NCBI GenBank assembly: GCA_015521825.1
Contig: WANL01000001.1
Coordinates: 1 to 48,448, forward strand
Direction of reading: 5' to 3'
DNA: 48,448 bases
DNA from: Candidatus Aenigmatarchaeota archaeon
GTDB lineage: Archaea; Aenigmatarchaeota; Aenigmatarchaeia; Aenigmatarchaeales; JAADFI01
Shown: piece by piece, positions 4,722 to 41,759 of the stretch
Layout: each line of letters opens with the position of its first letter
How positions within the stretch are numbered: position 1 is the first letter of the stretch
Made by a program: the position numbers and the translations under genes
The notes under the pieces: model-generated
Seen by the model: the letters and a program-made list of their open reading frames with translations, nothing else
The model's database searches: none
Told to the model about the DNA's origin: nothing

Positions 4722-5293
4722 CACCCGTCCCTCCAGGGAACTCCGAACTTCTCCCTGTGGACGATGTCCTTCAGAGGCGCCCTGACCGGCATTTCGGGTT
4801 TTTCCTTCCCGTAGCCGAGGGTGATGATCGCGCACGGTCTCACGTAAGGTGGACACTCCAGGATCATGGAAACCCTGTCCTCGGAGAAGGCCCCGACCCA
4901 GCAGGTGGACAGGCCGAGGGACTCCGCCGCCAGAAGCATGTTCTGGATCGCGGCGGCCACGGACTGAATGCAGTAAAGCCTGACGCCCCTTTCGCCGTAG
5001 GTGGCCGAGGCGATTTTCATGTTGATGCAGGCGACTATGAAAACCGGGGCCTGAAGCATCCAGTCCTGGTTGAAGCACGCCTCGACCAGCATTTTCTTGA
5101 TATTCCCGTCCCTGACGACAACAAACTCCCAGGGCTGACGATTCCCGGCCGAGGGAGCGTACCTGGCAGCGTCCAGAACGGTTTCCAGAAGATCTTCCGG
5201 AACCTGCCCGGACCTGTACTTCCTGACGGACCTTCTGGACTTTATAACGTCCAGGACTCCGGGAGCCTTTTTCCTTTTACCGAACACATTCAC
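4721..5293 (-). CDS. nitroreductase family protein
   Basis: Contains RRSVRKYRSGQVPEDLLETVLDAARYAPSAGNRQPWEFVVV, typical of the NADH oxidase/nitroreductase fold. 190 aa. Confidence 0.85.
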   Translation of the reverse strand: MNVFGKRKKAPGVLDVIKSRRSVRKYRSGQVPEDLLETVLDAARYAPSAGNRQPWEFVVVRDGNIKKMLVEACFNQDWMLQAPVFIVACINMKIASATYGERGVRLYCIQSVAAAIQNMLLAAESLGLSTCWVGAFSEDRVSMILECPPYVRPCAIITLGYGKEKPEMPVRAPLKDIVHREKFGVPWRDG

Positions 5294-14475: not shown

Positions 14476-15424
14476 GGAAGGTTCCCTGTCACCCTGGGGA
14501 ATTTACCCCGGGGCAAGACCCACCGAAGAGCTCGTCAAAAAGGGAATCGTGATTGTAGACAAACCCCAGGGCCCAACCTCCCACCAGGTGACCTCCTGGG
14601 TGAGGGAGATTCTCGGTCTCAAAAAGGCCGGTCACGCAGGAACCCTGGACCCGAGGGTCAGCGGAGTGCTGCCAGTGGCCCTGGGCGAAGCAACCAAAGC
14701 GATGCCGGCCCTCGCCTCGACGACCAAGGAGTACGTGGCCGTGATGCACATTCACAGGAAGGTGGAAAGGGAAAAAATCCTGGAAGCCTGCTCGTCTTTC
14801 CTCGGAACGATAGTGCAGGTTCCGCCGAGAAAATCAGCGGTGGCAAGGCGGCCGAGAAAAAGGAGGATACACGAACTGACAGTCCTGGAAGTGGAGGGGA
14901 GGGACGTGCTGATGAGGGTGGTCTGCGACGCCGGAGTGTACATAAGAAAGCTGTGCTCGGACATAGGGGAAAAAATGGGCGTGAAAGCGCACATGCAGGA
15001 ACTAAGGAGGACGCGGGCCGGAATATTTACCGAAAAGCAGAGCGTGACCCTTCAGGATCTTAAAGACGCCGTGGAATTCTGGAAGGAAGGGAATGAAAAG
15101 CCGATACGGACGGTAATACATCCCGTGGAGTTGGCGGTTGACAATATTAAGGCCGTAGTGATAAAGGACTCGGCCGTGGATGCCGTATGCAACGGGGCGC
15201 CGCTGGCAGTTACCGGGGTGGTGCTCGTCGAGGACGGGATATCGCCCGGAGACCTTGTGGGAATTCTGACGCTGAAGGGCGAACTCGTGGCCCTCGCGTC
15301 GGCGAAAATGAGTTCCGGGCAAATCCTGAAGGCGAGGAAAGGGATAGCCGCGGCGACCGATAGAGTTTTTATGCGCAGAGGCACATATCCTGATTGGAGG
15401 GCTCGTGGTGTAGCTAGCGGGTAG
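14450..15424 (+). CDS. cbf5: tRNA/rRNA pseudouridine synthase Cbf5 (H/ACA RNP catalytic subunit)
   Basis: TruB motif DKPQGPTSHQV..GHAGTLDP plus a C-terminal PUA domain. The last 26 nt of the ORF overlap the tRNA-Pro 5' end. Confidence 0.9.
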   Translation: MKKLLVRSEEGSLSPWGIYPGARPTEELVKKGIVIVDKPQGPTSHQVTSWVREILGLKKAGHAGTLDPRVSGVLPVALGEATKAMPALASTTKEYVAVMHIHRKVEREKILEACSSFLGTIVQVPPRKSAVARRPRKRRIHELTVLEVEGRDVLMRVVCDAGVYIRKLCSDIGEKMGVKAHMQELRRTRAGIFTEKQSVTLQDLKDAVEFWKEGNEKPIRTVIHPVELAVDNIKAVVIKDSAVDAVCNGAPLAVTGVVLVEDGISPGDLVGILTLKGELVALASAKMSSGQILKARKGIAAATDRVFMRRGTYPDWRARGVASG

Positions 15425-15497
15425 ACCCCGCCTGCAGTGGTCAGCATGAGAGCTTCGGGAGCTCTTGACCGCGGTTCAAATCCGCGCGAGCCCACCA
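15399..15497 (+). tRNA. tRNA-Pro (anticodon CGG) with about 23-nt insertion in the D-loop and encoded CCA
   Basis: Hand fold: GGGCTCG TG GTGT AGC[TAGCGGGTAGACCCCGCCTGCAG]TGGTCA GCAT G AGAGC TTCGGGA GCTCT TGAC CGCGG TTCAAAT CCGCG CGAGCCC A CCA. Acceptor, anticodon and T stems are perfect. The D stem uses two G-U pairs. Confidence 0.7.
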
Positions 15498-39479: not shown

Positions 39480-39974
39480 TTAACCACACTTGTAACCGAT
39501 GTCTCTAAGGAATTTTTTCCTTTCCCCAACATCTGCCTCGGTCTCGACCCCGAGAGGCGGCGACCCGTCAACCACGCCGAGAATCCCCCTTCCCTGTTCG
39601 GTCTCGGCAACGATGACCTGAAGGGGGTTGGCCGTGGCGCAGTACACCGAACAGACTTCGGAAACGGATTTCACCCTGTTCAGAACGTTTATCGGATATC
39701 CTTCCCTGAGAAGGATCACGAAGCAGTGGCCGGCGCCGATTTCCCGGGCTATCTCCGAGGCCCGGTTCTCCAGATCCTTCTCGTTCCCGGCGGTCCTGAC
39801 GAGTCTCTTTCCCGAAGCCTCGCAAAACGCTATTCCGAACCTGAGACCCGGGGAGGATTCGACAAGGGTCTCGTAAAGGTCCTCGACCGTTTTTATGAAG
39901 TGGGCCTGGCCCAGGATGATGTTGCAGTTTTCCGGAATTTCCACCCTCACGACTTTTATCTCCATGCCGTCCAC
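39480..39974 (-). CDS. adenosine-specific kinase family protein (PF04008-like)
   Basis: Contains [49 protein letters not shown] and [16 protein letters not shown]. Confidence 0.7.
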
Positions 39975-39986
39975 CGTACTTCGAAT

Positions 39987-40114
39987 GGTGGGGTCGCCAG
40001 GATTTCCGCCGCTTTGAACCTGGATCTGCCGGTTTCTTCATCCTCCCGTCGGAGCTCCAGCTCTGGAGCCGGCCGTAATTTCCAGCCGCAGAGCCTGGTT
40101 ATACTACGACCCCC
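39987..40114 (-). tRNA. tRNA-Trp (anticodon CCA) with three insertions (D-loop about 12 nt, anticodon loop 29 nt, T-loop about 10 nt) and encoded CCA
   Basis: Hand fold of the minus strand: GGGGTCG TA GTAT AACC[AGGCTCTGCGGC]TGGAAA TTAC G GCCGG CTCCAG[AGCTGGAGCTCCGACGGGAGGATGAAGAA]A CCGGC AGAT CCAGG TTCAAA[GCGGCGGAAA]T CCTGG CGACCCC A CCA. Acceptor (7 bp), anticodon (5 bp) and T (5 bp) stems are perfect. Confidence 0.6.
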
Positions 40115-40151
40115 TTCTTTTATAATCCCCTTTCCTCCTTAAAAATTTTTG

Positions 40152-41759
40152 CTACATCCTGGACACGGTTTCTATTCCGAGAAGCCCGAGACCGGTCTCC
40201 AGAACGGTAGAAACGCACCTTACGATCTCCAGCCTCCTTCCCTCGTGCTCCGAGCCGACGACCCTGTGTTTTTCGTAGAATCTGTTAAAAGCATCGGAAA
40301 GGTCGAAGAGGAAGCGGGCGAGACGGTGCGGTTTCAGGTCCTCGGCGGACTTTTTTACGACGGACGGGAACCGGGATATCAGCCTGAGGAGTTCGATCTC
40401 CTCGGGGGCCAGATCCGAGAACTCTAAACCGCCGGGGTCTCCGGCCTTTTCGAGTATGGATTTTGCCCTGACCAGGGTGTAGAGGAGATAGGGACCGGTG
40501 TCTCCCTTCAGCTTCGTCGCCTCCTCCAGGTCGAAGGAAACCGGGGTGTTCGTGTCCATTTTGAGCATCCCGTACTTAAGCGCGGCCAAGGCGACCTTCC
40601 CGGCGGATTCGCTTCCGTACTCAGCCTCCACCTTCTTCCTGAGTGCTTCGGTCACATCGTGATACGTCACGACATTACCCTCCCTCGAGGACATCTTTCC
40701 GGATTTCAGTCTGACGAGCTCGTAGGAAAGGTGGTGACTCTTCGCCGAAAGTTCCGGATCCATCATCTCGAAAATTTTGAACACCTGCTTAAAGTAGAGA
40801 TTCTGCTCAGAGGCAACCACGTGAATACATCGATCTATACCTTCCGAAAACTGGAGTTCGGCCAGCCCCAGTTCCTTCGCCGGGTAAAGGGGGTATCCTT
40901 CCTTCGTGACCAGGACCACGATGCCGAGGTCGAATTCGGTGAGGTCGACCACAACGGCGCCGTCGCTGATTTTCGCGATCCCCCTCCGAAGAAGATCGAG
41001 GGCTATTCTCTTCCCGGGTTCCGCCGTCTGGCTTTCGAAGTAAAGTCTGTCGAACCTCACTCCGAACTCCCGGTAAATGGAGTCGAAGTACTCCAGACTC
41101 CACTCTCTGGTTTTTCTCCAGACCTCAACGGTTTCCGGGTCACCCTCGTACAGGGCCTTGGTTATTCTTTTAACTTCCTCTTCCGGAGCCTTTTTACAGG
41201 CTTCGGTGTAGAGCTTTCCTAACAGCCTTCCCTTCTCAACCGGGTCCTTCGGCTCCGGGAATTCTAGGTTCAGGTACCCCCAGATACACTTTGCCACATG
41301 CGGCCCGATATCGCCCTGGTAATTGGCCCTCAGGACTCTGTTTCCCCTGAACTCGAGAATTCTTGCCACGGCCTCGCCTATGCAGAGGTTCCTGACGTGA
41401 CCTATGTGAAGCTCCTTGTGGGTATTCGCGTGGCAGAATTCCACCATCACCTTTTTTCCTTCGTTTCCCCTCCCGTAAGACGGACCGACGGCCTTCAGAA
41501 GCCGCGGAGCGAATTTCTCCCAGTCGATCCGAAAATTCAGATACGGACCTTCGGAAATGGGGATAACGAACTCCGCCCGGACCGAGGACGCGAGATCCGA
41601 AGCCGCGGAAACCGGATCCGGAGAGAGCCCGAAGCAAGGAAGGCAGAAGTCCCCGTGCGGGCTGCCGGCCGGAAGTTCCCTTACCTCCACATTCTTTCCC
41701 AGGACACGGGAGAGAGTGGAGGATAACTCTGACTTAAGACTGCTCCAGGGGTCGGACAC
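40152..41759 (-). CDS. argS: arginine--tRNA ligase
   Basis: Class I HIGH region CHANTHKELHIGHVRN, a KMSS-like GKMSSREGNVV and the C-terminal DALR anticodon-binding domain. GTG start. Confidence 0.9.
   Translation of the reverse strand: MSDPWSSLKSELSSTLSRVLGKNVEVRELPAGSPHGDFCLPCFGLSPDPVSAASDLASSVRAEFVIPISEGPYLNFRIDWEKFAPRLLKAVGPSYGRGNEGKKVMVEFCHANTHKELHIGHVRNLCIGEAVARILEFRGNRVLRANYQGDIGPHVAKCIWGYLNLEFPEPKDPVEKGRLLGKLYTEACKKAPEEEVKRITKALYEGDPETVEVWRKTREWSLEYFDSIYREFGVRFDRLYFESQTAEPGKRIALDLLRRGIAKISDGAVVVDLTEFDLGIVVLVTKEGYPLYPAKELGLAELQFSEGIDRCIHVVASEQNLYFKQVFKIFEMMDPELSAKSHHLSYELVRLKSGKMSSREGNVVTYHDVTEALRKKVEAEYGSESAGKVALAALKYGMLKMDTNTPVSFDLEEATKLKGDTGPYLLYTLVRAKSILEKAGDPGGLEFSDLAPEEIELLRLISRFPSVVKKSAEDLKPHRLARFLFDLSDAFNRFYEKHRVVGSEHEGRRLEIVRCVSTVLETGLGLLGIETVSRM

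Follow-up and report, generated by a model that had tools for sequence, protein, structure and literature searches.

A tRNA-Trp(CCA) gene interrupted at three positions, probably by introns, in an Aenigmarchaeota-like DPANN archaeon

Archaeal multi-intron tRNA genes and hBH introns at position 59/60 are already published. In ARMAN-2 (Ca. Micrarchaeum), the pre-tRNA-Cys(GCA) carries a 13-nt hBH intron at 59/60, which is cut in vitro by a broad-specificity splicing endonuclease (EndA) (Fujishima et al., 2011, PMC3239211). [quoted passage not shown] The crenarchaeal specific loop (L1) has not been found in DPANN (PMC5829648). Kaneta et al. took the incompleteness of tRNA sets in DPANN as a sign of disrupted genes that have escaped detection (PMC5829648). 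Among the short introns reported in the literature are those of 13 nt in ARMAN-2 (PMC3239211) and 11 bp in C. merolae (PMC3728597).

In this study, a tRNA-Trp(CCA) gene with three inserts was analyzed in a 495-kb assembly (88% complete) of a DPANN (Aenigmarchaeota-like) host, for which named homologues come from Aenigmarchaeota and 'Micrarchaeota' metagenome bins. The initial annotation had named Thermoproteales as an example of lineages with such genes; the multi-intron type stands, but the host is DPANN, which makes the 59/60 hBH intron of ARMAN-2 the closest published precedent. The two cases share a DPANN host, the position in the T-loop, the T stem as outer helix, one true bulge, a cut in the terminal loop and a very short intron. 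They differ in intron length (13 nt there, 10 nt here) and in the enzyme, which is a three-unit epsilon2 EndA in ARMAN-2 and has two separate subunits here. They also differ in frequency: 20 of about 43 tRNA genes carry the intron type here, and 18 of these 20 inserts are stereotyped (NNNN-CGGR-NN). As in Crenarchaeota, up to three BHB-type introns occur, including D- and T-loop sites; however, the host belongs to another superphylum, the introns are shorter and far more uniform, and the enzyme has (by homology) an insertion of the Nanoarchaeum-type, i.e., as in N. equitans, near the catalytic His. Up to five introns per tRNA gene have been reported in Asgard archaea (bioRxiv 10.64898/2026.10.13.758758). 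As in this further system from a different superphylum, hidden introns here escape annotators, occur several per gene and are enriched at BHB-compatible sites.

The window, i.e., the whole stretch of DNA analyzed, is 48,448 nt long, and all coordinates are counted from its first letter. The gene and its parts are as follows (the insert sequences are listed as the proposed introns):

39986..40113, minus strand: whole tRNA-Trp(CCA) gene, 128 nt, CCA encoded, found by structural scan
40093..40113, minus strand: exon 1, with the acceptor 5' strand, U8 A9, D-stem 5' strand GUAU and D-loop AACCAGGC
40080..40092, minus strand: D-loop intron, 13 nt, UCUGCGGCUGGAA, position 20/21
40063..40079, minus strand: exon 2, with A21, D-stem 3' strand UUAC, G26, anticodon-stem 5' strand GCCGG and CUCCAG
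40066-40064, minus strand: anticodon CCA, within exon 2
40034..40062, minus strand: canonical intron, 29 nt, AGCUGGAGCUCCGACGGGAGGAUGAAGAA, position 37/38
40013..40033, minus strand: exon 3, with A38, anticodon-stem 3' strand CCGGC, variable region AGAU, T-stem 5' strand CCAGG and UUCAAA
40003..40012, minus strand: T-loop intron, 10 nt, GCGGCGGAAA, position 59/60
39986..40002, minus strand: exon 4, with U60, T-stem 3' strand CCUGG, acceptor 3' strand CGACCCC, A73 and CCA

The gene sits in the 177 nt that separate the ArgRS gene (40152-41759) from an adenosine-kinase gene (39480-39974). The acceptor stem is perfect over 7 bp (GGGGTCG, 40113-40107, with CGACCCC, 39996-39990) and is followed by the discriminator A at 39989 and an encoded CCA at 39988-39986. 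The 5-bp anticodon stem (GCCGG/CCGGC, loop beginning CUCCAG) and the 5-bp T stem (CCAGG/CCTGG) are also perfect. These stems, the discriminator and the CCA had all been read correctly in the initial annotation, as had the minus strand, the 128-nt span and the 177-nt gap, although its coordinates (39987-40114) were one base off. It had likewise proposed an insert of about 12 nt in the D-loop, which is present and measures 13 nt (40092-40080), a 29-nt insert after position 37 with the loop reading CU-CCA-G..A, and one of about 10 nt in a TTCAAA/T context of the T-loop; the last two can be read in the sequence as proposed, the T-loop insert being 10 nt. The identity features of tRNA-Trp are present, namely the anticodon CCA in a 7-nt loop with U33, the pair G1-C72 and the discriminator A73, and they are the same as in the orthologues that ARAGORN calls tRNA-Trp.

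The unmodified locus was not called by ARAGORN, run without or with introns, nor was it found by Rfam at the gathering threshold or at E <= 10, in agreement with the earlier remark that automated annotation often misses such genes. These misses reflect limits of the tools and do not count against the gene. A structural scan was based on features of the cloverleaf: a CCA preceded by a 7-bp acceptor stem and an adjacent 5-bp T stem, a loop starting UUCRA-like ([U/G]U[C/U][G/A]A), and U or A at position 8. In the real 495-kb genome, 44 loci satisfied the scan; the reversed genome gave 1 and each of two shuffled genomes gave 0, which places the observation well beyond chance. Almost all of the 44 are recognizable tRNA genes; the two odd ones are a probable false locus on C21 and a locus on C15 whose start lies within tRNA-Tyr. 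Among the 44, the anticodon CCA is found in the candidate alone. Whether the genome has another tRNA-Trp gene had been named as a check; none was found by the structural scan in the 88%-complete assembly, and the locus is very probably the only tRNA-Trp gene of the genome. A second CUCCGAC, which might be read as the anticodon loop of Arg(CCG), was rejected, as it is without a flanking stem.

Excision of the three segments 40092-40080, 40062-40034 and 40012-40003 led ARAGORN to call a 76-nt tRNA-Trp(CCA) with a standard cloverleaf, as had been predicted for three removals. When the T-loop insert and one of the other two were excised, tRNA-Trp was called and the remaining insert was reported as its only intron. 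If fewer inserts were excised, ARAGORN found no tRNA-Trp, and one spurious tRNA-Ser was called if only the T-loop insert was removed. Folded to minimum free energy, the precursor does not adopt a cloverleaf (z = -2.8). In this fold the D-loop insert pairs with the T-loop insert; this pairing was set aside because the inserts in a genome of the same family (G001, below) differ in sequence and length.

The tRNA-Trp genes of related genomes of the same order were compared with the gene described here (genome G000):

G012 and G005 (family f5): canonical intron only, 76 nt; D-loop AACCAGGYA and T-loop UUCAAAU; called tRNA-Trp by ARAGORN run with introns
G028 (f3): canonical intron only, 33 nt; called tRNA-Trp by ARAGORN
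G014 (f2): canonical intron and a 14-nt insert at the same place in the T-loop
G007 (f7): canonical intron and an insert of ~22 nt near 25/26, a different non-canonical site
G001 (f1, sister genus in the same family as G000): all three introns; exons identical at 76/76 positions

An intron at 37/38 is present in every orthologue, with a length of 29 to 76 nt. The D-loop insert is absent in G012, G005, G014 and G028, and the exon-1 D-loop of our gene agrees with the AACCAGGCA/AACCAGGUA of the uninterrupted orthologues. The T-loop insert is absent in G012, G005, G028 and G007. Between the two members of the same family the introns diverge, while the exons remain 100% identical. The D-loop insert of G001 is also 13 nt long, with 7/8 of the first positions different and CUGGAA kept; its canonical intron is again 29 nt, with about ten differences; and its T-loop intron has 27 nt instead of 10 nt. 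A metagenome contig of a near-identical strain (L054) has the same exons and differs by four substitutions, which all fall within the proposed introns and leave the H helices described below untouched. In the alignment of the spliced orthologues the cloverleaf is 97.6% paired, and 7 pairs are changed on both sides; as a control, the structure was shifted by 1-3 columns, and then 0-1 such pairs were counted. Compensatory changes are seen in all four stems. One of them, the A12-U23 pair, is specific to G000 and G001 and flanks the D-loop insert. The gene order tRNA-Trp, adenosine kinase is kept in G001 and G012.

The junctions were evaluated with the standard BHB geometry of a 4-bp helix H and two 3-nt bulges, each cut after the second bulge nucleotide (marked here by a slash):

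D-loop site: H formed by CCAG and CUGG, 4 of 4 positions paired; bulges GC/U and AA/A; outer helix UAA with UUA (3 bp)
Anticodon-loop site: H formed by CUCC and GAAG, 3 of 4 paired, C34.A mismatch; bulges AG/A and AA/A; outer helix the 5-bp anticodon stem
T-loop site: H formed by UUCA and CGGA, 3 of 4 paired, A57.C mismatch; bulges AA/G and AA/U; outer helix the 5-bp T stem

A real inner helix is missing at all three junctions (there is almost none at the canonical site), and for this reason the motifs were classed as relaxed (hBH/BHL). The outer helix at the D-loop requires an alternative 3-bp pairing in competition with the D stem. When the 128 nt were scanned loosely for BHB motifs, dozens were returned, and this unspecific search was therefore replaced by a test of the fixed geometry across all interrupted tRNA genes of the genome, with shuffled inserts as the control. 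About 31 of the ~43 tRNA genes are interrupted. The T-loop inserts all follow UUCRAA at the same site, and seventeen of them are 10 nt long, two 9 nt and one 29 nt. Under the fixed geometry, 71/80 of their H positions pair, compared with 37 +/- 4 after shuffling (reached in 0/10000 cases). For the anticodon-loop introns (n=15) the corresponding values are 56/60 and 29.5 +/- 3.6 (again 0/10000). Five D-loop introns of 13-15 nt were found genome-wide, and canonical introns of 11-14 nt are also present. For tRNA-Ile(UAU), whose D-loop insert is 13 nt long, the cut rule yielded the D-loop AGCCUGGUUA, identical to that of the uninterrupted tRNA-Ile(GAU). Thus the question raised at the outset, whether BHB-like structures can be formed at the junctions, has a positive answer: a relaxed BHB/BHL forms at each, and the geometry is enriched throughout the genome.

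It could be argued that only the canonical intron is spliced and that the mature tRNA retains the other two inserts as enlarged D- and T-loops, a reading with which the very small size of the two inserts (13 and 10 nt) and the imperfect H helices of tRNA-Trp are compatible. We consider it very unlikely. The pairing partners of the inserts are G18/G19 and U54-A57, which form the elbow between the D- and T-loops; the T insert has 10, 27, 14 or 0 nt in the orthologues, whose T arms are otherwise conserved; the exact combination of a 4-bp helix and 3-nt bulges occurs in all 20 T-loop inserts; and for ARMAN-2, in vitro cleavage has been reported of an insert that shares this type and site and is 13 nt long (PMC3239211). 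A further alternative is that all inserts are removed, but at other cut sites or by another route than the BHB rule, e.g., in an obligate order of introns. The junctions are A-rich, so that boundaries at 57/58, 58/59 and 59/60 (and likewise at 37/38 or 38/39) yield the same product; the competition between the D-loop motif and the D stem also speaks for this alternative, as does the report that the canonical intron is removed first in M. kandleri pre-tRNA-Glu (PMC5829648). The fixed rule nevertheless fits the genome-wide helix positions in the proportions given above and reproduces the paralogue D-loop in tRNA-Ile, and a departure from it in tRNA-Trp appears improbable to us, with a chance of a few percent at best.

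A promoter-like element lies upstream of the gene:

40137..40150, minus strand: promoter-like BRE/TATA element AAAAATTTTTAAGG, -37 to -24 of the mature 5' end

A consensus of about AAAAWTTTTTAAAT is found equally far upstream of most tRNA genes identified by the scan, with an A+T content of 78-90% at -37 to -26. Leaderless transcripts combined with the loss of RNase P were considered for this genome and found unsupported, as the genome has an RNase P RNA that scores slightly under the Rfam cut-off (76.7 bits, E = 3.5e-22).

The type of EndA had been suggested as a further check. Two translationally coupled EndA genes were identified on contig C11. The downstream gene encodes the catalytic protein (177 aa), whose best structural-database match (E = 4.7e-32) is 3IEY_A, the alpha subunit of N. 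equitans; the two share a basic 7-residue insertion just before the catalytic His (GVHPLKRGKKSPREH compared with GVIP-KKGKRSEREH in 3IEY_A). The protein encoded upstream (166 aa) is 51% identical to the catalytic one, including a 39-residue identical block. It is without the insertion, and Ile replaces the catalytic His; on these grounds it was read as a structural, beta-like subunit. The check thus revealed a two-subunit EndA with an insertion of the N. equitans type in the catalytic subunit, and judging from the protein sequences the enzyme is probably of broad specificity. The basic insertion and the separate non-catalytic partner are features in common with the heterotetrameric EndA of N. 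equitans (3IEY). In contrast to that enzyme, the partner here is a close paralogue encoded by the gene immediately upstream, and the position of the catalytic Lys is Ala. The canonical Lys position aligns with Ala in the EndA of the whole clade, so the chemistry may differ in detail. The idea that the EndA duplication is unique to the intron-rich family was rejected, since the tandem pair is widespread and occurs in most families of the order. An RtcB ligase is encoded on C9.

Based on these data, the most probable interpretation is that the locus is a working tRNA-Trp gene with three spliced introns; we assign it a probability of roughly 0.87. We infer the occurrence of splicing, the exact cut sites and the order of cuts from the observations above, and the proposed course of events is the following. 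Transcription would start from the BRE/TATA element about 26-32 nt upstream and give a 128-nt precursor with introns of 13 nt in the D-loop (20/21), 29 nt at the canonical site (37/38) and 10 nt in the T-loop (59/60). At each site conserved exon loop nucleotides and four intron nucleotides would form the central 4-bp helix of a relaxed hBH/BHL motif, by pairing of CCAG with CUGG, CUCC with GAAG and UUCA with CGGA. The 3' cut would fall inside the 3-nt bulge (AA/A, AA/A and AA/U, respectively) and the 5' cut two nucleotides beyond the helix. The two-subunit (alpha-beta) EndA would make the cuts, and RtcB would ligate the four exons into a 76-nt tRNA in which CCA is already encoded. That the locus is instead a decaying pseudogene or unused relic, with a working tRNA-Trp in the unassembled part of the genome, would accord with the 88% completeness and with the silence of standard finders at the locus but is extremely unlikely in view of exons that are fully conserved in G001 and L054 next to diverged introns, four perfect stems, a lineage-specific compensatory D-stem pair that is retained, a standard promoter, conserved synteny and like interruptions in many other essential tRNAs of the genome.

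Without this gene the genome would seem unable to read tryptophan codons, so that recognizing it puts right the annotation of an essential function. The case is in line with a caution from the literature that disrupted tRNA genes lie hidden in DPANN genomes (PMC5829648). Added interest comes from the recurrence of the T-loop insert at one site in 20 of about 43 tRNA genes, with 9-10 nt in 19 of them. Matches to the 10-nt T-loop pattern number 15 in this genome, 7 in the sister genus and 0-2 in 39 other relatives, in which a reversed-pattern control likewise gave 0-2 matches. Together, the T-loop, D-loop and short canonical introns are a compact natural resource for studying how small a substrate of the archaeal splicing endonuclease can be, and they bear on the multiplication of non-canonical introns.

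A more far-reaching interpretation can be proposed only tentatively, and we would put it at clearly less than even odds as a whole. According to this proposal, a 9-10-nt intron at 59/60, with a fixed CGGR that pairs with the near-invariant UUCR, would have spread to about half of the tRNA genes in an Aenigmarchaeota-like family, and a 13-nt analogue in the D-loop would pair with the G18/G19 region. Introns would have been gained repeatedly or by templating. In addition, the canonical introns of at least five tRNAs (Trp, Gln, Glu, Arg and Met) would act as one-sided C'/D' guides for their own position 34. If the proposal is correct, the 9-10-nt T-loop introns would be the shortest splicing-endonuclease substrates of which we are aware; a non-exhaustive literature search gave 13 nt (ARMAN-2) and 11 bp (C. 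merolae) as the shortest lengths, and that the 10-nt intron of tRNA-Trp lies below both is a point against its being spliced. Identity between T-loop introns of different tRNAs is not claimed here as proof of copying: few positions are free, so that identity by chance among 190 pairs is not negligible.

The guide component of this proposal concerns the canonical introns. In euryarchaeal pre-tRNA-Trp, the intron contains a box C/D guide for Cm34 and Um39 (Clouet d'Orval, 2001; Singh, 2004; summarized in PMC4090602), and C34 is methylated by way of this intron-encoded guide (PMC4090602). The following elements were found in the 29-nt intron, the two boxes being a matter of interpretation:

40054..40060, minus strand: CUGGAGC, complementary to tRNA positions 31-37, duplex of 7 bp
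40049..40052, minus strand: putative box D'-like CCGA, one U after CUGGAGC
40038..40043, minus strand: putative box C'-like GGAUGA

The CUGGAGC motif is found in all orthologue introns with one or two changes. The spacing agrees with that of a guide, i.e., the fifth nucleotide upstream of CCGA pairs with C34; four nucleotides separate CCGA and GGAUGA. The same tRNA, the same intron site, and a complement to 31-37 that is followed by NNGA and then by GAUGA are shared with the euryarchaeal guide. The differences are that a single imperfect C'/D'-like pair is present in 29 nt and that a position-39 guide is missing. Full C/D and C'/D' pairs were likewise not found in the 29-nt intron, which could be at most a half-guide. 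Of the proteins for box C/D methylation, fibrillarin (E = 3.4e-65) and Nop5 (E = 5.2e-45) are encoded by neighbouring genes on C14. Because there is only one imperfect box pair, we offer the guide as a hypothesis, and the odds appear about even that the 29-nt intron retains half of the euryarchaeal pre-tRNA-Trp box C/D guide and directs 2'-O-methylation of C34.

Similar elements were seen in other canonical introns of the genome. A box D'-like motif stands at the equivalent place in Gln(UUG) (CUGA), Arg(UCU) (UCGA) and Met (CCGA), and GAUGA occurs near the 3' end of the Trp, Gln, Arg(UCU), Glu(UUC) and Lys(CUU) introns, with AAUGA in Met. In our reading, the canonical introns of Gln(UUG), Arg(UCU), Glu(UUC) and Met(CAU) may have a like layout directed at position 34. 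To our knowledge, intron-guided 2'-O-methylation of position 34 has so far been described for tRNA-Trp only, and intron-encoded guides would, if the reading is correct, reach beyond this tRNA. Among the related genomes, the 76-nt Trp introns of G012 and G005 may contain a full guide.

Insertions in the T-loop are widespread among the tRNA genes of the source genome. An insert 3' of UUCRAA was found in 20 of the approximately 43 tRNA genes genome-wide; it is 10 nt long in 17 of them, 9 nt in two and 29 nt in one, and the pattern NNNN-CGGR-NN followed by U60 is matched by 18 of the 20. Some inserts are shared between genes with no differences: AATCCGGGAT is common to Gly(GCC), Gly(UCC) and Arg(GCG), and GCCGCGAAAT to Glu(CUC) and Lys(CUU). 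Examples of genes with a T-loop insert:
C4:3148-3065
C12:2550-2467
C24:10830-10746
C29:2574-2658

Further D-loop inserts of 13-15 nt were identified, in which the central helix is of the CYGG/CCAG type, as in tRNA-Trp, and the bulge reads AAA (AAG in Lys), with the proposed cut after AA. Like tRNA-Trp, tRNA-Lys(CUU) carries three introns; D-loop and canonical introns are combined in tRNA-Ile(UAU) and tRNA-Tyr(GUA), and D-loop and T-loop introns in tRNA-Thr(GGU). These D-loop inserts, a D-loop insert within the window and a class II gene are located as follows:
C26:13593-13454, D-loop insert
C19:23065-22957, D-loop insert
C3:1571-1473, D-loop insert
C15: ~5015-5138, D-loop insert
window 15399-15497, plus strand, tRNA-Pro(CGG) with a D-loop insert of ~22 nt
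C23:1171-1328, class II tRNA gene, 158 nt, discriminator G

The tRNA-Pro(CGG) gene was miscalled by ARAGORN, either as a 74-nt Pro gene starting at 15424 or as a "Cys" gene with an intron, and its Rfam match is limited to positions 10-63. The class II gene is probably Ser(UGA), with Leu(CAA) as the alternative reading. The gene appears to carry four inserts, in the D-loop, anticodon loop, variable arm and T-loop; the putative T-loop insert is 9 nt long and that of the variable arm is GATCCGGGAA-like.

Canonical introns resembling that of tRNA-Trp were found in four other genes:
C15:12338-12441, Gln(UUG)
C19:25874-25754, Arg(UCU)
C19:22629-22508, Glu(UUC)
C26:13449-13326, Met(CAU)

Each contains, as in Trp, a segment complementary to positions 31-37, followed by U and NNGA (CUGA, UCGA or UGGA), in Met instead by UU and CCGA. 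Downstream of NNGA lie a short spacer, GAUGA or AAUGA, and a purine-rich RRGG-AAA end with the proposed cut before the last A. Position 34 is paired by the fifth nucleotide 5' of NNGA. The canonical introns of these four genes and of tRNA-Trp may be one-sided C'/D' methylation guides. In a relative from another family (G007), tRNA-Trp has, besides its canonical intron, an insert of ~22 nt with an ATGTCT...AGACAT hairpin near 25/26, a non-canonical site unlike those of the source-genome tRNA-Trp:
L032 (G007:C14) 545-683, tRNA-Trp

Two EndA genes are adjacent on contig C11, the start of one overlapping the stop of the other:
C11:1789-2819 (locus L016 1291-2321), EndA gene pair

Both proteins contain an identical 39-residue block (IDPRFEFRYAVYKDLRSRGLPTRTGFKFGCDFRVYERG without the initial residue), an identity suggestive of gene conversion. 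The database protein P0004 is a chimera of the alpha N-terminus and the beta C-terminus, joined at this block. At residues ~150-158 of EndA alpha (LAHNIRANM), Ala aligns with K156 of the M. jannaschii enzyme, the canonical catalytic Lys, as it does in all aligned Aenigmarchaeota-like homologues; Tyr and His are retained.

Examination of the upstream 50 nt revealed, in most tRNA genes of the genome, a strongly conserved AAAAWTTTTTAAAT-like element at approximately -37 to -24; a second A/T-rich patch lies at -12 to -3 upstream of most of them. RNase P RNA was nonetheless located at C20:3157-3391, scoring 76.7 bits, below the 84-bit Rfam cut-off. One tRNA-Asn(GUU) is found twice, its flanks identical, at the end of contig C9 (25933-26008) and the start of C11 (42-117); these contigs probably overlap.
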